64,000 nucleotides of DNA, taken from an uncultured Ignavibacteria bacterium. GTDB taxonomy: Bacteria; Zixibacteria; MSB-5A5; CAIYYT01. The stretch is taken from the NCBI GenBank assembly GCA_964617645.1, contig CAZTYE010000007.1:88203-152202 (forward strand), given 5' to 3'. The position numbers and the translations under genes were made by a program. Each line of letters opens with the position of its first letter. The stretch's first letter is position 1. The notes beneath the pieces are model-generated. The model did not search any database. It was not told where the DNA came from and was given only the letters and a program-made list of their open reading frames with translations. Of the stretch, positions 768 to 9,864 are shown piece after piece.

Positions 768-796
768 TTGTCAAGCAGGCAAAGTTGATCTATTCT
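768..796 (+). promoter_or_regulatory. putative sigma-70 promoter (TTGTCA-N17-TATTCT) just upstream of the ppsR ATG; would give a near-leaderless mRNA
   Basis: Hexamers read directly from the sequence with 17-nt spacing. The -10 ends 6 nt before ATG 803. Confidence 0.25.
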
Positions 797-802
797 AAAT
801 TC

Positions 803-1678
803 ATGGCTGTCCCAATAAGCGAATCAAAACCAATTATCATTGTCTCCGACGGAACCGGCCGGACCGCGCGCCGATTGCTTGACGCCGTGCTCGCCCAGTA
901 TGCCGAGCAGAAGGTGACATTCACGATCAGGCGGACGTTCCAGGCAGTTACCACCAAAGCGCAGGCGGAAAAGATCGTCGAAGAAATCAGCGACGAGTAC
1001 CTGGTGATCTACTCGATCATCTCGCTTGAACTCGGGACTTATTTTCATGAGATCCTCGAGGAACGGGGAATATTGCACCTTAACGTGCTTCGGCCAATGA
1101 TCAAAACGCTATCGAAGTTCCTGGGAGTACATCCGGAATTCAAACCGGGATTGCTGCAAATCGTCGATGACAATTACTACCGTAAGCTGGATGCCATCGG
1201 CTACACGGTTGAACACGACGACGGCCGCGGTCATCGCATCGAAGAGGCCGATTTAGTGCTTGTCGGGCTATCACGCACCTGCAAAACGCCGATTTCGATG
1301 TATCTGGCGTGCAACTTCGGACTCAAAATCGCAAATATTCCGGTCATCGCCGACTCGACGTTTCGCCATCAGATGCTCAACCGTCTGCGGGCGGTTCCGG
1401 CCGGCCGCATTATTGGTCTCATGATTCAGGCCAATGAACTGGTGCGGATTCGCGAGGAGCGAGCCGGGCTTCTGGTCGGCGATCCGGCGCGAAAGCATGA
1501 CCTGATCGCTTACCACGATGTAACGCAGATTCGTAACGAGTTGCGCTTCTGTCGGCAGTTGTATGCCGAGAATAATTGGGAGTCGATCGATGTGACGCGC
1601 CGGGCGATTGAGGAAGTCGGCGCGGAGATTCTCCAAACGTTGAAGATTCCGGTCGATAATCTGCGAGAAACGATGTAG
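803..1678 (+). CDS. ppsR: PEP synthetase / pyruvate phosphate dikinase regulatory protein (bifunctional kinase-pyrophosphorylase, DUF299)
   Basis: IIIVSDGTGRTA N-terminal motif, a second P-loop-like GLSRTCKTPISMYLA, and ~290 aa length match the PpsR/YdiA family. Confidence 0.85.
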   Translation: MAVPISESKPIIIVSDGTGRTARRLLDAVLAQYAEQKVTFTIRRTFQAVTTKAQAEKIVEEISDEYLVIYSIISLELGTYFHEILEERGILHLNVLRPMIKTLSKFLGVHPEFKPGLLQIVDDNYYRKLDAIGYTVEHDDGRGHRIEEADLVLVGLSRTCKTPISMYLACNFGLKIANIPVIADSTFRHQMLNRLRAVPAGRIIGLMIQANELVRIREERAGLLVGDPARKHDLIAYHDVTQIRNELRFCRQLYAENNWESIDVTRRAIEEVGAEILQTLKIPVDNLRETM

Positions 1679-1804: not shown

Positions 1805-3187
1805 ATGCAAACGAAATTCAACGCAAGTTCTGATCGCCAAGAGAAGTTCAGCCTTCAATCTTCGCTGATCTACTTCGTGTGGAACAGCGGAGCAGCTCCG
1901 TTGGGCGGTGAAGCGCACTTGGAAGTCGGCACAAGCTTTGTCGGGGACGGCGCCCCGATTGAGATCACAGCCAAAACCGCCGCTGGGAAAAGTGTCGGCA
2001 AAATTACCGACAAGATCCGTAACAACAAGTTCGTAGGCTCGATGCCGATTCCTGACAACTTGCGACTCGGTGACCTGGTCTATTTCAAAGTGAAGCTGTC
2101 GAGCCATGGTCTCGAAGGCGAGTCGAACCGGATTCCGGTCGTTCTGCCGATCATCGTCAGCGATCTCAGCTGGAGCGCGACCGAGGCGCGTCGCGGTGAT
2201 ACGCTGACTTTGAAAGCGAAAGTAAAGAACGTAATCAACGGCACTCCCGCTAAAGTTACAATATATGAATCCGATCAAGACGGCGCTCACGACAAGATTT
2301 GCGAGCTGGAAACCACCGTTCAGGATGAGAAGATTGAGCTACAATGGGAATATCAATATCACGAGGACACTGATGAAATCCCCAGCGAGCAGGAGTTGCA
2401 GCAGTACGGGCGCAGCTATAACCCGCCGGAGTACTTCTTCACGGTCAAACTCGAAAACGACGAATACGGCCGTGACCAATCGTCGGGGCTGCTGCTGTTT
2501 AAAGATTGGATAGAGATCGAACTCCGCGACGATGAAGGCCGCGTTGTGCCGAATCAGCACTATAAGATAACGCTGCCCGATGGGACAGAGCGGGAGGGCG
2601 ATCTCGATGATCAGGGCAAGGTACGCATCGAAGATGTGCCTCCCGGCCAGTTTACGATCACCTATCCCGGCGCGATTACGGCCGTCGATCAGGAGGAGTT
2701 AACCGAGAACGATACCGAAGCTGAACTCAGCGACTTCGAATTGGAAGTCGCGGATAAGGCCAAGATGATCATGGTTGATCCGAATCAATTGCCGGAAGGC
2801 ACTGACCAGTTCACGACGACATTGAAGCCGAGACTATCAGCAAGTTCCGACGATCGCGCAGCATTGAGGCAGAGTTTGGGAGAAGGCCCTCCCAATCATG
2901 ACGCGCACCACATCGTTCCTTGCGGTGACAGCGCCGCCGAAGAGGCCCAGAACATTCTCAAGGAATACGGTGTCGGAATCAATGAAAAAGTCAATGGTGT
3001 CTACCTCCCGAACTTAGCTCAAGGCGCTGACTCTGAGCGCGGAATGGAGCCCTTCGCGGCAACCAGTCATCAGGAGACTCAGAGCCCCGAATACGTTGAA
3101 GCCGTCACTGCCCGGCTTCGCGAGGCCAAAAGTGAGCAAGATGTGCGCGCCATTCTTGAGCAGATAAAGTCTGAGTTGATCGGGTGA
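1805..3187 (+). CDS. protein with C-terminal AHH-type HNH/EndoVII nuclease toxin domain; N-terminal repeats of unknown function
   Basis: C-terminus DAHHIVPCGDSAAEEAQNILKEYGVGINEKVNGVYLPN matches the two signature blocks of the AHH nuclease family (AHH-I-V-P and NGV-Y/W-LP). No signal peptide, PAAR or Rhs region. Confidence 0.6.
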   Translation: MQTKFNASSDRQEKFSLQSSLIYFVWNSGAAPLGGEAHLEVGTSFVGDGAPIEITAKTAAGKSVGKITDKIRNNKFVGSMPIPDNLRLGDLVYFKVKLSSHGLEGESNRIPVVLPIIVSDLSWSATEARRGDTLTLKAKVKNVINGTPAKVTIYESDQDGAHDKICELETTVQDEKIELQWEYQYHEDTDEIPSEQELQQYGRSYNPPEYFFTVKLENDEYGRDQSSGLLLFKDWIEIELRDDEGRVVPNQHYKITLPDGTEREGDLDDQGKVRIEDVPPGQFTITYPGAITAVDQEELTENDTEAELSDFELEVADKAKMIMVDPNQLPEGTDQFTTTLKPRLSASSDDRAALRQSLGEGPPNHDAHHIVPCGDSAAEEAQNILKEYGVGINEKVNGVYLPNLAQGADSERGMEPFAATSHQETQSPEYVEAVTARLREAKSEQDVRAILEQIKSELIG

Positions 3188-3246
3188 TTTTGTAATCTTA
3201 TCACCGCCACAGGATATTATGTGAGCATTGAGAGACGATATCAGGT

Positions 3247-5643
3247 ATGACAAACGATACAACAGATTCAGTTCATAGTGTCTCGTCAGGTCAGGCTTCG
3301 ACAACACGACTTAGCAACCGGATTGCCGTCATTCTGAGCCGCTTCAACTACGTTACATACGATGCCTTGGGAAGCAATCTGCCGCCCCAGGGTTTCTTCG
3401 GCTTCATTGGCCGGATACTCAACGGCTCCGGCGGTCAGTTCCGCTACGTTGAGACTCAGGACGACTTGCTCACACTCTTCAAAGAAGACCATCTTACTGA
3501 CATACCGTGGCGGATGCGGCCGCTCGTATCCGAGGCGACTGACCGATGGATCTACATTTACTGCCAGCCACGGGAAGTGATTTGGCAGATTCACTACCGG
3601 GGCATCCTCGATTGGGACTGCGATGAATTTCTGCGGGATGGAGATGGCGACTTCCAGCCACAACGGAGCGAGAGTTCGGGCGGCAGGCTCTATGAGATTT
3701 CTCGGCGCGACCTTCCCGATTGTTTTGGCATTGCTCTGCCGAGCCAGGTGGACATGAAGACCGCCGACATGATTTTCACAGGCGGTTACCGGGCAAATTC
3801 CGATTTCCTGCGCTTTGCTAAGCTGCGACTTATCAACCGACTCAGCACGCAAGGGCCCGCGGAGGCGCGCTTGATCGTATTCGATCCCGGAAATCTGGTT
3901 GATATGACGATTGATGCTTTGTCCGCCTACGAGCGTCTGATGACACTTGTCGATATCCGCCTGCCTTCCGGGCGTCTTTCGGCGGAGCAACGACGCATTC
4001 GACTCAAGGGGATACTGGCGTGCCTCTGCAAGCAGTTGGCGGAAGCAGACAGCGCGTTGGAAGACGACTTCAACATGGGGCAATTGGACGCGGAGTTTAC
4101 GCGCTACGCTGATTACGGAGCGCGACGCTGCCGCCTCATCGACAATCTCTATAATTTCCTGTCGCGACCGGTGATGCTTGATCTTCAGAAGCAGTTTATG
4201 GTATTCAGCGAAGGCGACCAGCGCCCGGACGGCAAAGTGTGGCTGCAGATCATCGCCGCGATGACTTCAATCGCCGGCGATCACGAGTTGCTCTCCGACT
4301 ATCTTGTCGATCAGGCGCGCGCCGAAACGAGCGAGAATGCTTGGGCGGCGTTCTTCAAGGCCTCCCTGGGCCGCGGCGGTCCGCAAGAAACGGCGATGGC
4401 GAACGCGTGGAAGACGGGTTTTAGCCAGGTTGACGCCGCCGAGATGATTTCGTCGACGTTTACAGTTGCCGCGTACGAACTGCTTTTCGCTTACGTCGGG
4501 CGGCCCGCAGATTTCTCCGGTTATGTTGACGAACTGCAGGCGCTCAGAGACTGTGTCGGCCGCAATGTCCGGGCATTGGGCGCGGCCAATGTGACTGAAG
4601 GCGCAATGGCAAAGATTGCCAGCGTCTATCGGGTTGCCAACGGGCTTGGCGAACTCAAAGCGATTCTCGAAGGACGAGTAGATGCCGGACGAATCGCGAG
4701 TGTCTCCGACAGCCTGGCCAACGCGGCGACATTGGCGGGCGCTAAGGGTCTGGCGATGAAAGCGCTCGTCGTCAAGAACATCTTTGATATTTATGCCAGT
4801 GGATCGGGAGCGGTGGATCGCATCCAGATGGAGGACTACAACGCCGCCGTCGGGCACGCGATGGTCGTTGGTGCCGGACTCGCAGAACTGGGCCTGATCG
4901 GTTATGGAGTCGCTACAGGGGCGAGCGTTGGTGGACCTGTTGGCGCGATCATCGGTCTTGTATCGGCTGCCGGAGCGGTGATCGTAATTTTGGCGACGGA
5001 CAGCGACACGGAGTACTTTGCGCGTCGCTGTATGTGGGGGCAAACTCCGGGGGAGGGAACTGCAAGCCCCGGCTGGATCGTGGGAACCTGCGATGATTGG
5101 CGGGCCGACGATCAAGGTTTGAAAAAGCAACTTCACTCTCTGATCAATTGCCTGCATCGATTCACGGTGGCGCATAGTTTTGATCCAACGCCGAGAGTCG
5201 TGGAAATCAACATTCGAACGAAATTCCTGCCCGATGCCGCCAAATTCGTATTTCGCGGCGAGTTCAAGACGGCCGGTGGACGTACGTCGAGGACGCTGTT
5301 TACTCTGCGTTTTCCGTCTCATCGCCGCGATCGCTATCAGGATTTCACAGTCCCGACTTCCGGAGGACGGTCAATCATCTCCGCCAATTACCGCGTGCAA
5401 CAAGACGGCGAGGAATTCCTGATCACGGTCAATCTGAAGATGGCAGAAGGCTATACAACAGGCGAGGGATGGTTGACTTGCCAGCCATTTGGCCATCAAG
5501 AATTTACTGTTCCGCACGATGGACAAGCCTTCCATCTGCAGCAGCTCATCGAACACTCGAATATCCTCATCAATCGCGATCGCGACTATGCTTTTGACAC
5601 CGATGAGTGGGATTCGATGCCCGGCTGGACGACACGGGGATGA
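3247..5643 (+). CDS. large hypothetical protein (798 aa) with central glycine-zipper transmembrane segment
   Basis: Long ORF with protein-like composition. Residues ~530-580 are GHAMVVGAGLAELGLIGYGVATGASVGGPVGAIIGLVSAAGAVIVILA (GxxxG/A repeats). No recognisable catalytic motifs. Lies 60 nt downstream of the AHH gene. Confidence 0.5.
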   Translation: MTNDTTDSVHSVSSGQASTTRLSNRIAVILSRFNYVTYDALGSNLPPQGFFGFIGRILNGSGGQFRYVETQDDLLTLFKEDHLTDIPWRMRPLVSEATDRWIYIYCQPREVIWQIHYRGILDWDCDEFLRDGDGDFQPQRSESSGGRLYEISRRDLPDCFGIALPSQVDMKTADMIFTGGYRANSDFLRFAKLRLINRLSTQGPAEARLIVFDPGNLVDMTIDALSAYERLMTLVDIRLPSGRLSAEQRRIRLKGILACLCKQLAEADSALEDDFNMGQLDAEFTRYADYGARRCRLIDNLYNFLSRPVMLDLQKQFMVFSEGDQRPDGKVWLQIIAAMTSIAGDHELLSDYLVDQARAETSENAWAAFFKASLGRGGPQETAMANAWKTGFSQVDAAEMISSTFTVAAYELLFAYVGRPADFSGYVDELQALRDCVGRNVRALGAANVTEGAMAKIASVYRVANGLGELKAILEGRVDAGRIASVSDSLANAATLAGAKGLAMKALVVKNIFDIYASGSGAVDRIQMEDYNAAVGHAMVVGAGLAELGLIGYGVATGASVGGPVGAIIGLVSAAGAVIVILATDSDTEYFARRCMWGQTPGEGTASPGWIVGTCDDWRADDQGLKKQLHSLINCLHRFTVAHSFDPTPRVVEINIRTKFLPDAAKFVFRGEFKTAGGRTSRTLFTLRFPSHRRDRYQDFTVPTSGGRSIISANYRVQQDGEEFLITVNLKMAEGYTTGEGWLTCQPFGHQEFTVPHDGQAFHLQQLIEHSNILINRDRDYAFDTDEWDSMPGWTTRG

Positions 5644-5767
5644 CGAGTATCGATTCAATGCGGAAGCCCCTCGTTGCATCCTGCCAACAGTGAAAATCGG
5701 ACTGACACTGCGTGGCTCGCAGAACTCCCACACGCGTTTCGTTTTGGGGTATAGGGAATCATCTACA

Positions 5768-5840
5768 TCGGGGCGAGCAGACTTGAACTGCCGACCTCTC
5801 GCACCCCAAGCGAGCACGCTACCAACTGCGCCACGCCCCG
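5768..5840 (-). tRNA. tRNA-Pro (anticodon GGG)
   Basis: Reverse complement CGGGGCGTGGCGCAGTTGGTAGCGTGCTCGCTTGGGGTGCGAGAGGTCGGCAGTTCAAGTCTGCTCGCCCCGA folds as a cloverleaf: 7-bp acceptor CGGGGCG/CGCCCCG, D-arm GCGC..GCGT, anticodon stem CTCGC/GCGAG with loop TTGGGGT, T-loop TTCAAGT, discriminator A. Confidence 0.75.
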
Positions 5841-5903
5841 ATACGGTCGAGCGACCGCAGTCATTATAGCGTCACCGCCGATTCGGAACAACCGAAATAT
5901 CGC

Positions 5904-7466
5904 TTGTCGCCCCTGAAGACCTACCTATATTCCTCCGAAAATTCGGATGTCGGATGCAGGTTGATTAAAGTGATTTACTGGTTTCTAATCTGGCTCTTCG
6001 TAGTTTTGACCCTCCCAAGCGCTGACTTGTCAGCTCAGGTAGCGAGCGCACAGGCGCGCACGCTGCGCCCCGGTGATCTCTATGAGGAGGGCGACCGCGT
6101 CGAGTTTAAGATCGAGCGGCGTGGTGAGGTCATTGGCCGCCAAAGGGCAACATGCGTCGGCAGTCGGTTGGTTGAGGGCGACTCACTTCTCTATTTTGAG
6201 ATGGAGACCAAGTCGGTATTCGAGCGCTCGGGCAAGATGCTCGATATGAATGTAAAATGCGAAATCGGCTATCAGCCGAACGGCGCTGCGCGACGGTACG
6301 ATTACGAGCTATCGTTGCTCAACGCCAGCGTCACGCATCACGGTGTGCTCACCGGAACAGAATATGTTGGCGAAACGACTCGACTGGGGATTCGCCAGCC
6401 GTTCAACATACCCCTTCAACGCTGGCCGGTCATTTTCGACAACAATTTCGCGCTGCAATGGGAGATTGCGCTTTATCCGATTCGCCGCAATCCGGGCGAC
6501 ACACTGCACGCCGAGACTCTGATTCCGCAGTTGGATCGGCTGGTAGCGGTCACAATTGTCGTTCAGCCGAACGAAACCATTGTTTACGGCGGACAGACGG
6601 TTACGACTCGCGTACTCAAACTCGATCAACTCAATCAAACGATCTACTTGGACGAGCGGGGTGTGCTTCTGAAGGCTGTTGACAAACAAAGCGGAATTTC
6701 CGTGACCCGTCTCGCCGCCGGCGAAACCGCGGAGTTGCCTACTCAGCCATTTCTCGACACGTTCATGAGCCGCATCCCCGGCTATGGAATGCTCGCGGCT
6801 TTGGCGGCCGTCTGGGCGGCAGGATTCGGTTGGCGCCGTGTCAATTCTTCATGGCCGTGGGTGATTCTCGTAGTCGGAGCGAGCCTATACGTCCTGTCGC
6901 TGCAGATCCTGCCATGGGTTCAGGAACGATATTTCTCGTTCGTGCTTGACCCGCGGTCGCCTTCGACGAGCATCTATATTCCGCTGCTTGGCTCGGCGTT
7001 GATATTCGCTCTGGTTGAGCTATTAGCGATCGTGTCGCCTCTGGTCGTTCTCAATGGAGCGAAAAGGCTGACGGCTACGCGAGCCGCAATTGCGATTGGC
7101 GCATTCTCCGGGATCGGTTTCGGACTGATTCAGGCTTGCAACCTGACCGGGTTTGGTCCCGACGGATCGCTCCTCATCAGGGCCGACCTGCTGCAGAAGT
7201 TCGCATTAATTGGTTTGAACGCCGTTTGCGGCGCGTGGCTCGCCCAGTTGATCGTGAGGCGACAACCGGCAGTATTCTACCTTTTTCCCATCGGATTCAA
7301 GATGTTATTCAATTGGACGGCGGCGTTCCTGCAGAAGGGCGCGCTAACGGTTGCCCAACATGCCGTGCTGGGGTTAGTGGTCACTCTCCTGGCATTAGTC
7401 GCATACTTCTTGATTTACCGCCGCGAACCGTTGCCGGCACAGCTAAAACCCGCCCGGAAATCTTGA
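5904..7466 (+). CDS. hypothetical polytopic membrane protein (N-terminal ~280-aa extracytoplasmic domain + ~8 TM helices)
   Basis: N-terminal TM/signal (IYWFLIWLFVVLTL), then a soluble domain, then a hydrophobic helix-rich C-terminal half. Confidence 0.5.
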   Translation: MSPLKTYLYSSENSDVGCRLIKVIYWFLIWLFVVLTLPSADLSAQVASAQARTLRPGDLYEEGDRVEFKIERRGEVIGRQRATCVGSRLVEGDSLLYFEMETKSVFERSGKMLDMNVKCEIGYQPNGAARRYDYELSLLNASVTHHGVLTGTEYVGETTRLGIRQPFNIPLQRWPVIFDNNFALQWEIALYPIRRNPGDTLHAETLIPQLDRLVAVTIVVQPNETIVYGGQTVTTRVLKLDQLNQTIYLDERGVLLKAVDKQSGISVTRLAAGETAELPTQPFLDTFMSRIPGYGMLAALAAVWAAGFGWRRVNSSWPWVILVVGASLYVLSLQILPWVQERYFSFVLDPRSPSTSIYIPLLGSALIFALVELLAIVSPLVVLNGAKRLTATRAAIAIGAFSGIGFGLIQACNLTGFGPDGSLLIRADLLQKFALIGLNAVCGAWLAQLIVRRQPAVFYLFPIGFKMLFNWTAAFLQKGALTVAQHAVLGLVVTLLALVAYFLIYRREPLPAQLKPARKS

Positions 7467-7544: not shown

Positions 7545-7730
7545 ATGGCGATGAAGATCACTGATGAGTGCACGGCCTGCGGACTCTGTCTGCCGGAGTG
7601 CCCGAACGACGCCATTGCCGAAGGGGACATTTACGTCATTGACGCCGTCAAGTGTGATGAATGCGCAAACGTGGAAGGCGGAAGCCGCTGCGTGGCCATT
7701 TGCCCGGTTGACTGCATTATCAAAGCGTAA
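7545..7730 (+). CDS. 2x[4Fe-4S] ferredoxin
   Basis: CTACGLCLPECP and CDECANVEGGSRCVAICP cysteine clusters, 61 aa. Followed by a terminator. Confidence 0.85.
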   Translation: MAMKITDECTACGLCLPECPNDAIAEGDIYVIDAVKCDECANVEGGSRCVAICPVDCIIKA

Positions 7731-7791: not shown

Positions 7792-7995
7792 ATGTTTACC
7801 GGCAAGCAAGCGTTTATCATCATCCTGATTTTACTCACGGTTCTCCTGCTGTTTCAGAATTGGCGGATCGTCGATCTCCATTTCACCTTGATTCGTTTCC
7901 CGATACCGCTACCGGTGTTGATTCTGGGTTGCGTCGGAATCGGCATCATCTTCGGCTTCTGGCTTGATCGCCCCAAAAAAAGTGGCAAGAAGTAG
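7792..7995 (+). CDS. small inner-membrane protein, LapA/DUF1049-like
   Basis: 67 aa, two TM helices separated by QNWRIVDLHF, basic C-terminus. Resembles the LapA (YciS) family. Confidence 0.45.
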   Translation: MFTGKQAFIIILILLTVLLLFQNWRIVDLHFTLIRFPIPLPVLILGCVGIGIIFGFWLDRPKKSGKK

Positions 7996-8416
7996 CTTTC
8001 GTTACCTGGAGGATGTCGCAACCGCCGACGCGGCGTTCGTGGCCTTTGGCGAAAATCTATCCGAGCTGTTTTGCCATGCCGCGCAGGCGCTGTTCAATGT
8101 GATGGCGCCACTGGAGTTGATCCGCCCCGACAAACAGCGCACACTATCCGTGACTGCCGATTCATTGGATGAACTGCTGTTTACCTTTCTATCCGACTTG
8201 GTTTACATGAAGGACGTTTACTCGGAGTTGTATTCGCAGTTCGACATCGAGATTGCCAAGAGCGAGACCTGGGCGCTGACCGCCAATATCGCCGGTCGGT
8301 CGCTCACCGAGCTGCGGTCCAATACGCACACGGACGTGAAGGCCGTGACGTATTATCGTCTGGCGATTACGCAAACTGAAAACGGTTTCGAAGCGATGGT
8401 TGTTTTGGACTTATGA
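7982..8416 (+). CDS. archease (RtcB activator)
   Basis: ~145 aa with FRYLEDVATADAAFVAFGENLSELF N-terminal motif (the E-x-x-ADxxF archease signature). Immediately upstream of and overlapping the rtcB start. Probable GTG start at 7982; the ORF is open from TTG 7964. Confidence 0.7.
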   Translation: MARSSFRYLEDVATADAAFVAFGENLSELFCHAAQALFNVMAPLELIRPDKQRTLSVTADSLDELLFTFLSDLVYMKDVYSELYSQFDIEIAKSETWALTANIAGRSLTELRSNTHTDVKAVTYYRLAITQTENGFEAMVVLDL

Positions 8417-9864
8417 GATACGCACTGCAGAAGATTCGTGACGGTGTCTGGGAAATCCCGACCTTCGCCAAGCAGGGAATGCGAGTTCCGGCGCGATTGT
8501 ACACCAGCGAAAAGCTTCTGGCGTCCCTCGATGACGGCGTTTTCGAGCAGGTGACCAATGTTGCGACACTGCCCGGAATCGTCGGCCCGGCACTCTGCAT
8601 GCCGGATGGCCATTGGGGCTACGGTTTTCCCATCGGTGGCGTGGCGGCGTTTTCGGTTGATGAGGGTGTGATCTCACCCGGCGGAATCGGTTTCGATATC
8701 AACTGCGGCATGCGTTTGATCCGCACGAATCTGACTCGCGAAGAAGCGGAACCCAAACTCCCGCAGCTCCTCGACCGGCTCTTTCAGTTGGTTCCCGCCG
8801 GAGTTGGAGTCAATGGATCCATCAGCCTGAATAAGAAAGAGTTCGCCAATGTTTTGGTCGACGGCGTCGAGTGGTGTCGCAAGCACGGCTACGCCAACGA
8901 ATCCGATCAAATGTCGATCGAACAGCGCGGCAGAATTCCCGGCGGCGATCCTGATCAGGTTTCGGCCAAAGCGTTCGAGCGCGGCCGCAACCAGCTTGGC
9001 ACCTTGGGTTCTGGAAATCACTACCTCGAAGTTGAAGTCGTCAGACCCGAGAATGTCTACGAACCGGAAATCGCTGCGCGATTCGGCCTCGATCGACCCA
9101 ATCAGATTGTGGTTTTGATTCACTGCGGCTCGCGCGGGTGCGGTCATCAGGTGGCAACCGATCATCTCCAATCGTTTACGAAGGCGATGCCCAAGTACGG
9201 CATCAAGACCAATGATCGGGAACTCGCTTGCGCGCCGTTTAGCTCGCCGGAAGGGCAATCCTATTTCAAAGCGATGACCTGCGCCGCCAATAGCGCCTTT
9301 GCCAACCGCCAGCTCATCGTTCATCATGTCCGGCAGGCGTTCGTCGAAGTATTCGGCAAAGCCGAGCATTTGCTCGGACTTGAGACGATCTATGATGTTG
9401 CCCATAATATTGCTAAGATCGAGCGCTACAAAATCGACGGTCGCGAACAAAAGGTGATCGTGCACCGCAAGGGTGCGACGCGCGCTTTCGGGCCAAATTC
9501 TCCCGATGTGCCGGAGAAATATCGCGAAGTTGGCCAGCCGGTATTGGTCGGTGGCTCGATGCAGACCGGGTCATATCTTCTCGTCGGAACGCAGAAGGCG
9601 ATGAACGAGACTTACGGTTCGACTCTTCACGGTTCCGGCCGCACGATGTCGCGCATGCAAGCCAAGAAAATGGTGCGCGGCTCCGATCTGCTCGTGGAAA
9701 TGAAAAACGCGGGAATCATGGTACGCGCGGCTTCGCTTTCCGGTCTGGCCGAAGAAGTCGGCTTCGCCTACAAAGAAATCGACGACGTGATTGCGGCCGT
9801 CGACGCAATCGGAATCTCCCGCAAAGTCGCCAAACTGGTGCCGATCGGTAATATCAAGGGCTAA
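8413..9864 (+). CDS. rtcB: RNA-splicing ligase RtcB (3'-phosphate/5'-hydroxyl RNA ligase)
   Basis: DINCGMRL, GSGNHYLEVE, HCGSRG and a C-terminal HGSGR motif; 483 aa. Confidence 0.9.
   Translation: MRYALQKIRDGVWEIPTFAKQGMRVPARLYTSEKLLASLDDGVFEQVTNVATLPGIVGPALCMPDGHWGYGFPIGGVAAFSVDEGVISPGGIGFDINCGMRLIRTNLTREEAEPKLPQLLDRLFQLVPAGVGVNGSISLNKKEFANVLVDGVEWCRKHGYANESDQMSIEQRGRIPGGDPDQVSAKAFERGRNQLGTLGSGNHYLEVEVVRPENVYEPEIAARFGLDRPNQIVVLIHCGSRGCGHQVATDHLQSFTKAMPKYGIKTNDRELACAPFSSPEGQSYFKAMTCAANSAFANRQLIVHHVRQAFVEVFGKAEHLLGLETIYDVAHNIAKIERYKIDGREQKVIVHRKGATRAFGPNSPDVPEKYREVGQPVLVGGSMQTGSYLLVGTQKAMNETYGSTLHGSGRTMSRMQAKKMVRGSDLLVEMKNAGIMVRAASLSGLAEEVGFAYKEIDDVIAAVDAIGISRKVAKLVPIGNIKG

Follow-up and report, generated by a model that had tools for sequence, protein, structure and literature searches.

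Two adjacent genes, ORF1 and ORF2, probably form an 'orphan' effector module, a satellite of a Bacteroidota-like type VI secretion system (T6SS), in a Zixibacteria-like (FCB-group) genome. They are separated by a 59-nt spacer and lie between ppsR and a tRNA-Pro gene in the window, the whole 64-kb stretch of DNA analysed, in which no T6SS structural genes were found (Table 1). The first-pass annotation had described this arrangement as it stands in the sequence and had regarded the pair as a possible effector module, a reading that we retain.

In the mechanism that we propose, the N-terminal core of ORF1 would be a secreted carrier or adaptor riding on the T6SS spike, and the variable tail at its C-terminus would be a tether for the effector whose gene lies directly downstream. 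In the clade of the window, the distal part of the tail appears to have been replaced by an AHH nuclease domain of the HNH/EndoVII fold, so that ORF1 would be a toxin itself as well as a carrier. The cargo would be ORF2, a compact protein that has diverged strongly from its relatives, the VasX/BTH_I2691/Tke5/Ptx2 toxins. These toxins put Gly-rich helices into the target inner membrane, leading to depolarisation.

Table 1. Features of the ORF1-ORF2 locus in window coordinates
Feature	Position	Strand	Description
ppsR	785..1678	+	PEP synthase regulatory kinase/phosphorylase; PF03618 E 4.6e-69; NCBIfam PRK05339 237 bits (cutoff 225)
ORF1	1805..3187	+	460 aa; putative carrier core (three beta-sandwiches), acidic linker and C-terminal AHH nuclease domain
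Core domain 1	1862..2143	+	ORF1 residues 20-113; beta-sandwich; AF2 pLDDT >90
Core domains 2-3	2156..2662	+	Homologous to the PAAR protein C-terminal extension
Disordered acidic linker	2675..2884	+	ORF1 residues 291-360; 17 D/E vs 6 K/R
Strain-variable segment	2729..3284	+	556 nt: ORF1 residues 309-460, 59-nt spacer and ORF2 codons 1-12
AHH nuclease toxin domain	2882..3169	+	ORF1 residues 360-455; A367-H368-H369, N397, H422, Q426
ORF2	3247..5643	+	798 aa; distant VasX/BTH_I2691/Ptx2/Tke5-like candidate pore-forming T6SS effector
ORF2 N-terminal alpha/beta domain	3544..3882	+	ORF2 residues 100-212; AF2 secondary structure
Glycine-zipper hydrophobic hairpin	4843..4998	+	ORF2 residues 533-584, inside helical region 214-594; hydropathy, motifs
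ORF2 C-terminal helix and Ig-like beta-sandwich	5110..5538	+	ORF2 residues 622-764; AF2 pLDDT about 75-87
tRNA-Pro(GGG)	5767..5841	-	ARAGORN; Rfam RF00005 61.1 bits; right frame of the locus

The ORF1 core and its T6SS linkage

On sequence comparison, the N-terminal ~290 aa of ORF1 are an undescribed family, absent from current domain libraries. Its start (MQTKF...) lines up with those of its homologues (MELKF...), and 50-60% identity is kept over the region across FCB-group genomes, mostly labelled Zixibacteria. The AlphaFold2 model contains three beta-sandwich domains at residues 20-286 (pLDDT mostly >90), in agreement with the earlier description of ~350 aa of beta-rich sequence preceding the AHH domain. 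[quoted passage not shown] Domain 3 is transthyretin/CarboxypepD_reg-like, with a weak PF13620 match at residues 240-304. Domain 1 was compared with that portion of the PAAR extension that resembles domain 2 (hhalign probability 43%), and its weak resemblance to domain 2 suggests that it possibly arose by internal duplication. No PAAR, gp5/gp27 or Hcp domain was found in ORF1, which has the PAAR extension in common with the PAAR protein, but not the PAAR cone. The previous statement that ORF1 lacks a trafficking domain holds for the current domain libraries, but not for the N-terminal ~290 aa, a T6SS-cluster family that shares two domains with the PAAR protein.

The neighbourhood search among relatives, which had been suggested earlier, covered 10 kb around the core gene in 80 fetched loci from species-representative genomes, and placed T6SS-associated genes within that distance in 66 of them. 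T6SS structural genes were present in 49 loci, while PAAR, ~1180-aa or DcrB-like genes only were present in 17 further ones, mostly on short contigs. Among the loci with both flanks of at least 5 kb, 42 of 52 were linked. The genes always follow one another in the same order (PAAR, ~1180 aa, ~400 aa, DcrB-like, core, variable slot, ClpV-TssB-TssC-TssD-VgrG-TssE), and the core occupies its fixed position usually as one copy per cluster. The variable slot, or core-to-ClpV gap, spans 0.2-5.4 kb, and the 75 proteins inside fall into 48 clusters. Between two T6SS clusters, the core is 53% identical, VgrG and PAAR 41-50% and TssE 61%; the proteins in the slot show no relationship. The T6SS cluster of these FCB-group bacteria is T6SSiii-like. 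Satellite core copies, far from any T6SS cluster, each head different downstream genes.

Tail exchange, the AHH domain and the role of the core

The C-terminus of ORF1 matches the Pfam AHH profile PF14412 at 46.3 bits, above the curated cutoff of 22.3 (E 4.6e-12, profile positions 12-108 of 111), and both signature blocks are present (AHH, residues 367-369; NGVYLP, 397-402), confirming the AHH toxin module recognised in the first-pass annotation. AHH domains are defined in part by two helix-associated histidines (PMC3113570). The HH of the tripeptide (H368/H369) and the helix residue H422 are kept, while the second helix position, unnoticed before, is Q426; it is His in the AHH-bearing relatives (P0010 compared), and all four conserved His are present in relatives L009 and L010. 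AlphaFold2 modelled this part of ORF1 with only partial confidence. AHH tails are rare, being carried by the window gene and by 2 of 85 core genes, and thus the core family is not broadly a polymorphic toxin scaffold.

The linker preceding the AHH domain has pLDDT <50 at residues 294-366, and tail comparison identified its first part as the counterpart of the acidic tail in AHH-less relatives. A conspecific strain (L089; gene order ppsR, core347, ORF2 homologue) carries an unrelated 144 nt, encoding a plain acidic tail, in place of the strain-variable segment. In blastn alignment, this strain and the window are 98.2% identical up to position 2728 and 98.9% identical from 3285, with no match between. 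Tails have a median length of 58 aa where a Gly-zipper-superfamily gene follows and of 11 aa elsewhere (Mann-Whitney p 7.5e-5, phylogeny ignored). An ORF2-family gene follows a core gene in 12 of the 12 contexts seen (the window, L089, L001/L009, L010, L002/L011, L003, L029, L034, L052, L090, L091 and L092), with the core identity provisional for L090, where only the final 34 codons of the gene upstream lie on the contig. Overlap between the two genes was seen twice: 4 nt in L002 and 14 nt in L089.

DUF4123/Tap proteins load MIX-type VasX/BTH_I2691 effectors onto VgrG. By its position, the core is equally an analogue of these non-secreted adaptors, and ORF1 could be a cytoplasmic adaptor or chaperone for ORF2, with the AHH domain a decaying or domesticated appendage, a reading that we regard as unlikely. 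In its favour, the core lies directly upstream of the cargo gene, as tap genes do, no DUF4123 gene was seen in the core-gene loci examined, and tail length follows the cargo class. The Gln at a metal-binding His position and the absence of the AHH domain from the conspecific strain point the same way, as does the lack of an adjacent immunity gene: none was found adjoining ORF1 or ORF2 in any context examined, and, to our knowledge, such a gene accompanies every characterised AHH or VasX-type effector. However, the toxin fusions known to us are on T6SS components that are delivered (VgrG, PAAR, Hcp and MIX/FIX/RIX effectors), never on non-secreted adaptors. The AHH-bearing relatives with the full set of His also speak against a decaying domain, the module in common with PAAR argues for a spike position, and secreted adaptors have precedent (PMC10435454).

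Less probable still is that the core is a fixed structural subunit of the T6SS (a baseplate component, spike decoration or part of the membrane complex) that loads no cargo and adjoins variable genes at a recombination hotspot. Its fixed, usually single place in each cluster and its conservation across the phylum, above that of VgrG, would fit such a subunit. However, satellite paralogues travel with their own downstream genes, tail length co-varies with the class of those genes, core and ORF2-family genes overlap in two contexts, and the core can carry a fused toxin domain.

ORF2 and the origin of the locus

Sequence profiles and the structural model identify ORF2 as a distant VasX/BTH_I2691/Ptx2-like candidate pore-forming T6SS effector. 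It had been described as an unusual partner with a glycine-zipper segment, rather than a small immunity protein; the segment is real, and the partner is itself a toxin candidate. An exhaustive profile search yielded 233 relatives, with the hairpin region common to more than 200 proteins. All 56 of the 56 relatives tested match the C-terminal part of the NCBIfam T6SS effector family BTH_I2691_fam (best E 2.6e-45), and VasX_N is present in one of them; ORF2 itself scores 10 bits against the family cutoff of 150 bits, with no match to Pfam VasX_N. The AlphaFold2 model, of mean pLDDT 61, has a three-part layout as in Tke5 and Ptx2, and Ptx2 (9qpv) is its only Foldseek PDB match at E<=0.001 (E 8.3e-4, full-length alignment; TM-score 0.30). 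The MIX definition and the Tke5 layout used for comparison were taken from PMC12909789. Near the N-terminal domain is a degenerate MIX-like pattern (DIPWRMR, residues 85-91; DRWIYIY, 99-105) lacking the MIX Gly. The hairpin comprises two Gly/Ala-rich hydrophobic segments (residues 533-556 and 560-584) and is immediately followed by a conserved DSDxExF...CxWG motif (585-598). The C-terminal layout fits the beta-rich region of Tke5, packed against a single helix.

The locus is framed on the left by ppsR, a housekeeping gene that adjoins the module also in L001/L009, L010 and L089, and on the right by tRNA-Pro, a frame found also in L001. Relatives with protein identities of no more than ~58-67% have the module in this same frame, indicating that the placement is old. 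The first-pass annotation pointed to insertion at tRNA-Pro, and a horizontally acquired island bearing an orphan polymorphic toxin and an unusual partner, with no dedicated secretion machine, would suit a tRNA 3' end that points toward the pair, housekeeping neighbours and a gene content between ppsR and the tRNA that varies (two genes in the window, four in L001), but it is largely refuted and highly improbable, since no integrase, repeat of the tRNA-Pro 3' end or GC anomaly (GC 0.52-0.61 throughout) was found around the locus, the frame is old, and the ORF1 and ORF2 families both sit within T6SS clusters. These observations instead indicate an old satellite T6SS locus. The same annotation would have read a conserved context as core housekeeping; the context is indeed conserved, but what it encloses is a weapon cassette that varies, and not housekeeping genes.

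Comparison with known systems

The ORF1 C-terminus shares with the AHH toxins of polymorphic systems (PF14412; Zhang et al. 2011, PMC3113570) the AHH tripeptide, an NG-containing hairpin and a helix-associated His, as well as its location after a linker and the swapping of the C-terminus between strains. It differs in the Gln replacing the second helix His and in its N-terminal carrier, a new family; no SUKH or other immunity gene lies downstream of ORF1, nor does the exchanged segment bring one along.

In common with the VasX/BTH_I2691/Tke5/Ptx2 effectors (PMC12909789; PDB 9qpv, 9R8G), the ORF2 model has an alpha/beta N-domain, Gly-rich membrane helices enclosed by a helical region and a C-terminal Ig-like sandwich; the membrane region is related by transitive profile homology, and Ptx2 is the top structural match. 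Those of Pseudomonadota are ~1000 aa long, whereas ORF2 has 798 aa. It also differs from them in falling below the NCBIfam cutoff, in lacking VasX_N and the MIX Gly, and in occurring in FCB-group bacteria without a DUF4123 adaptor or an adjacent immunity gene.

The 'specialised' PAAR, VgrG and Hcp effectors combine a conserved cluster-encoded component with a fused toxin or a cargo-loading platform. Satellite copies of the core likewise bring their own cargo genes, although ORF1 has only the PAAR extension in common with these proteins, and no PAAR, gp5/gp27 or Hcp domain.

The RIX-domain secreted adaptors and polymorphic effectors of Vibrionaceae (Kanarek et al. 2023, PMC10435454) have no sequence relationship to the core: their short arginine-rich domain contrasts with ~290 aa of three beta-sandwiches, a fixed slot in the main cluster, rare toxin fusions (AHH only), a putative tether formed by an acidic disordered tail, and an operon without an immunity gene. 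They nevertheless resemble it in having a conserved N-terminal part for T6SS loading, followed by a C-terminus that is a toxin in some cases and in others tethers the effector whose gene comes next. In the RIX-TTR secreted adaptors, the TTR-like loading or tether module also occurs fused to PAAR (PMC10435454), which is paralleled by the homology between core domains 2-3 and the PAAR extension.

Organization of the ppsR–tRNA-Pro locus

The first-pass annotation had described a gene pair (ORF1 and ORF2) between ppsR and a tRNA-Pro, with an AHH nuclease signature in the first product and Gly-rich segments in the second, and all of these features are present. It had also called the tRNA a classic site of island insertion. 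However, the window ORFs include no integrase, the repeats of the tRNA-Pro 3′ end that it had proposed to look for were not found, and there is no compositional shift, the GC content (0.52–0.61) being the same as in the flanks, which argues against a tRNA-linked island. The neighbouring genes are housekeeping genes, encoding a ferredoxin, archease, RtcB, transporters and DsbD. In L001, a locus of another genome (assembly GCA_964576925.1; the same place as L009), the same module lies between ppsR and tRNA-Pro(GGG) and encodes proteins 58–67% identical to those of the window; this frame holds an additional cassette, composed of a 304-aa gene and a gene of the core family, to which the N-terminal part of ORF1 belongs. 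The placement of the ppsR–tRNA-Pro locus is old and stable; what varies is the set of genes in it.

The 64-kb window contains no structural gene of a type VI secretion system (T6SS) and no second core copy, so that the machine, if present at all, must be encoded elsewhere in the genome. A PADLOC scan was empty, the PHROGs matches were to unnamed families only, and a promoter and terminator scan returned nothing above chance. The 520-aa protein encoded past the tRNA belongs to no family (a faint DUF6134 match had an E-value of 0.05) and was not found beside the module in relatives; as an immunity candidate for ORF2 it would be a long shot. Archease and RtcB are the known activator–ligase pair, an ordinary arrangement.

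Positions of features in the window and, where an L number is given, in compared loci of other genomes
Feature	Position	Strand	Remarks
ppsR	785-1678		left flank of the ORF1-ORF2 pair
ORF1	1805-3187	+	460 aa, intact; 59 nt before ORF2
ORF2	3247-5643	+	798 aa, intact; no Pfam family
tRNA-Pro(GGG)	5767-5841	-	right flank of the pair; gap to ORF2 5644-5766
520-aa protein	5904-7466	+	just past the tRNA; hydrophobic N-terminal segment, ~270-aa soluble part, ~5 C-terminal membrane segments
Small 2x[4Fe-4S] ferredoxin	7545-7730		precedes archease and RtcB
Archease	7964-8416	+	overlaps the RtcB start by 4 nt
RtcB (RNA ligase)	8413-9864	+	
Split ClpV	L003:13782-16330; L007:12323-14883; L090:2737-5288; L091:10628-13175		
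PAAR proteins with extension	L006:3722-4759; L003:3667-4731; L002:3820-4824		
Core genes with internally repetitive tails	L023:6547-7695; L072:10001-11143; L045:1092-2297		
Core paralogues with Cys-rich tail and the gene(s) behind them	L001:13998-15855 (= L009); L010; L012; L008:10001-11793		317-318 aa

The core family and its place in T6SS clusters

A homology search with ORF1 returned 455 proteins, nearly all of ~290–300 aa, which cover only residues 1–290 at 50–60% identity; they stem from metagenome-assembled genomes that carry the label of Zixibacteria or of neighbouring phyla of the FCB group. The AlphaFold2 model of ORF1, built on 67 of these homologues, places three β-sandwich domains in residues 20–290 with very high confidence, and continues with a disordered acidic linker (294–366) and a C-terminal domain of partial confidence. 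When the ORF1 model was submitted to Foldseek, the AHH domain was swamped by the N-terminal sandwiches, which retrieved only generic tandem macroglobulin/Ig sandwiches (TM ~0.18) and no indication of function. No family of Pfam, NCBIfam or PADLOC covers the core, and a literature search on T6SS in Zixibacteria turned up nothing specific, so that the family appears to be undescribed.

A scan of species-representative genomes yielded at least 176 core copies, and 80 loci were analysed. T6SS structural genes lie within 10 kb of the core in 49 of the 80; a further 17, mostly at contig ends, have only the PAAR, ~1180-aa and DcrB-like genes, and 14 have none. Of the 52 loci whose flanks both reach 5 kb or more, 42 are T6SS-linked. 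The gene order is invariant: PAAR, a ~1180-aa protein, a ~400-aa protein, a DcrB-like protein, the core, a variable slot, ClpV, TssB, TssC, TssD, VgrG and TssE. The TssC belongs to PF17541 and the TssD to PF17642, which we take to be the Bacteroidota (T6SSiii) types. The initial description of ORF1 as a toxin without any recognisable trafficking domain holds only with respect to current domain libraries: its N-terminus is a conserved family encoded in T6SS clusters.

[quoted passage not shown] In PAAR and VgrG, extensions of the TTR-like kind are considered internal cargo adaptors. In the PAAR proteins listed in the table, a Gly-rich linker is followed by three β-sandwiches, the first and third of which are both TTR-like and mutually related (hhalign 91%). 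The gene behind PAAR (~1180 aa, conserved at ~31% identity only) has no Pfam family save a weak OmpA match. The disassembly ATPase ClpV consists of two ORFs overlapping by a few bases in every inspected FCB-group T6SS cluster, the first (~485 aa) with Clp_N, AAA and AAA_lid_9 and the second (~365 aa) with AAA_2 and ClpB_D2-small; this conserved split looks unusual.

From the core gene to ClpV, the slot measures 0.2–5.4 kb, and the 75 proteins in it form 48 clusters. Between two T6SS clusters the core is 53% identical, VgrG/PAAR 41–50% and TssE 61%, and the slot proteins are unrelated; satellite core copies at other places in the same genomes each lead their own, differing downstream genes. ORF2-family genes lie between the core and ClpV in L003, L029, L034, L052 and L090–L092, each as the sole occupant and ~190–260 nt before ClpV. 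In other slot families a large gene is paired with a small one, such as 831–904 aa with 198–213 aa or 488–589 aa with 332–348 aa, and these pairs look like effector and immunity genes. Among the slot families, that of the predicted pore-former ORF2 stands out in being without an immunity gene. Other genes behind core paralogues (781, 410, 304, 377+191 and 782 aa) were tested as candidates for the ORF2 family and are not members.

Beyond the core, the C-terminus of nearly all members is an acidic low-complexity tail, short in some and long in others. Its median length is 58 aa before genes of the Gly-zipper superfamily (n=9) and 11 aa before others (n=67; Mann–Whitney p 7.5e-5, with AHH forms excluded and kinship ignored), and the core stop overlaps the start of the ORF2-family gene by 4 nt in L002 and by 14 nt in L089. 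We infer that the tail is a cargo-specific tether. Some tails are internally repetitive (table), as in GGDDTQDDDxDTQQDT, and those of the core proteins P0117, P0079, P0085 and L045 end in a common ...GGGG...EEE(E)PLQG/M motif, which could be a conserved docking peptide. A second type of paralogue has a Cys-rich tail (...SSSCSGC...). Behind it stands a 304-aa protein, with parts homologous to two small L008 genes (105 and 117 aa) that are likewise placed behind the core; these genes could be a fused or split small repeat-protein array, possibly immunity-like.

The AHH tail of ORF1 and the predicted pore-former ORF2

Residues 360–455 of ORF1 match the Pfam AHH family (PF14412, of the HNH/EndoVII fold) with an E-value of 4.6e-12 over profile positions 12–108 of 111, and the profile search suggested in the first-pass annotation thereby returned a score well above the curated cutoff (46.3 versus 22.3 bits). 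As judged from the sequence, membership of the AHH domain family is secure. The near-invariant tripeptide, in which the first His is a metal ligand and the second activates water (PMC3113570), corresponds to A367-H368-H369, and NGVYLP occupies residues 397–402. The family definition also requires two conserved His residues on the treble-clef helix, which are metal ligands (PMC3113570). The first of these is kept as H422, while Q426 replaces the second, where the AHH-bearing relatives P0010, L009 and L010 (contig CAZOYE010000022.1) have His (HSDLH). Because of this replacement the catalytic competence of the domain is uncertain, and it may be retained, weakened or lost. With regard to the ββα-metal fold, the AlphaFold2 model of this region has a hairpin (392–399) and two helices (376–387 and 428–439), residues 401–421 have a pLDDT below 50, and the stretch with AHH does not come out as a strand. 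With the C-terminal 144 aa alone as query, a search among 5.8 billion proteins gave no match, not even P0010, and a PDB sequence search with the AHH region gave nothing useful.

Only the window and its two close relatives, L009 and L010, carry the AHH domain, or 2 of the 85 core genes that the genome scan covered. The 3.3-kb contig L089, from a conspecific strain (SRR16938233), matches the window at 98.2% identity as far as position 2728 and again, at 98.9%, from 3285 onwards. Between these positions the window has 556 nt, comprising ORF1 residues 309–460, the spacer and ORF2 codons 1–12, and L089 instead has an unrelated 144 nt coding for an acidic tail that resembles that of L011. The AHH tail is an addition that is both rare and mobile. 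Swapping of the C-terminus is typical of polymorphic toxins, and ORF1 shares this property with them. Unlike in those systems, no immunity gene moves along, and the strain-variable 556 nt contain no extra ORF.

ORF2 has Gly/Ala-rich hydrophobic segments at residues 533–556 and 560–584. A word-based search found eight homologues, all of ~800 aa, and an exhaustive search of 1.84 billion representatives with the ORF2-family profile found 233 relatives, ~13 of which are full-length; more than 200, mostly of 750–1100 aa, match positions ~480–650 only. All 56 of the relatives tested match the C-terminal ~180 positions (~660–840) of NF041559, the NCBIfam profile of the T6SS effectors of the BTH_I2691 family, with a best E-value of 2.6e-45; Pfam VasX_N is present in one of them. 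The relatives have the motifs DYxAAxG, DSDxExF, CxWG and LxxQLxxLxNxLHxF in common, so that the homology of the Gly-rich region is not merely compositional. The ORF2 model (mean pLDDT 61) consists of an α/β part (100–212), a helical part around the Gly-rich segments (214–594), and a helix with an Ig-like sandwich (622–764), a three-part layout that matches those of Tke5 and Ptx2 (PMC12909789). The model is also structurally similar to a solved member of this group, Ptx2 (TM-score 0.30). Residues 1–96 of ORF2, at the N-terminus, are conserved yet unstructured. PDB sequence searches with ORF2 and with the family profile gave nothing useful.

ORF2 shares membrane-region homology with BTH_I2691, VasX, Tke5 and Ptx2. 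However, its own alignment to the NCBIfam profile NF041559 (residues 491–601 with positions 726–838) scores 10.3 bits (E 0.17), far below the 150-bit cutoff, and Pfam VasX_N does not match. Its MIX-like pattern is degenerate (DIPWRMR / DRWIYIY) and lacks the Gly of the motif, which has the form hRxGhhYhh with flanks (PMC12909789). Upstream of ORF2, a DUF4123 (Tap) adaptor gene is absent and the β-sandwich core gene is found in its place. For these reasons ORF2 is not filed as a member of the BTH_I2691 family, and we suggest that it would work like the VasX/BTH_I2691-type effectors, to which it is distantly related.

Immunity genes and comparison with secreted adaptors

No immunity gene directly follows the AHH-bearing ORF1, the next gene being ORF2. 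That ORF2 is itself the AHH immunity protein was rejected, because its family stands beside AHH-less cores in 9 of 12 contexts and ORF2 is itself toxin-like. The first-pass annotation had likewise seen no small immunity protein in it, a view that is borne out. ORF2 is also present in AHH-less strains. In the 12 contexts, the gene directly behind the ORF2-family gene is ClpV or a tRNA, or else a further cassette begins there, leaving no room for an immunity gene; the gene in front is a core gene, presumably also in L090, where the contig end cuts it. By their sequences, both toxins would be of known kinds, an AHH nuclease and a pore-former; in having no neighbouring immunity gene they are unlike all characterised relatives. 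The puzzle here is that neither of the two toxin types, of which one is exchanged among conspecific strains, has an adjoining immunity gene; this absence, if it holds up, bears on kin protection in these systems.

ORF1 and ORF2 probably form a satellite T6SS carrier-plus-cargo module. To our knowledge, almost all that is known of T6SS effector loading comes from Pseudomonadota and a few Bacteroidota. It is possible, if on balance doubtful, that the core is an unrecognised, phylum-wide secreted carrier of T6SSiii-like systems, on a par with Hcp, VgrG and PAAR. On this view the module shared with PAAR would serve to mount it on the spike, its acidic tail would tether VasX-like pore-formers, a nuclease would occasionally be fused to it, and the toxins borne by it would work without cognate immunity genes. 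The consequence, if true, would be that targeting is strictly inter-phylum or that protection is generic and cluster-encoded. The core gene, a conserved and unannotated cluster gene of an uncultured phylum, marks the effector slot; with 48 unrelated clusters behind it, it could serve as a search handle for effectors in FCB-group metagenomes. With ORF2, the VasX/BTH_I2691 pore-former superfamily would gain a phylum and a loading partner that are new to it.

In Vibrio, the RIX-TTR proteins are secreted as adaptors and act as a tether for the downstream-encoded effector; the module by which they are loaded also occurs fused to PAAR (PMC10435454). In the core family, too, the N-terminal part is conserved and the genes lie in or near T6SS clusters, with variation in the C-terminus and in the downstream cargo; the core likewise shares its putative loading module with a PAAR extension, the comparison being at the level of function only. 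The 290-aa β-sandwich core has no obvious resemblance to RIX, and ORF1 is not filed as a RIX protein; although the sequences are apparently unrelated, the logic of the two systems is alike.
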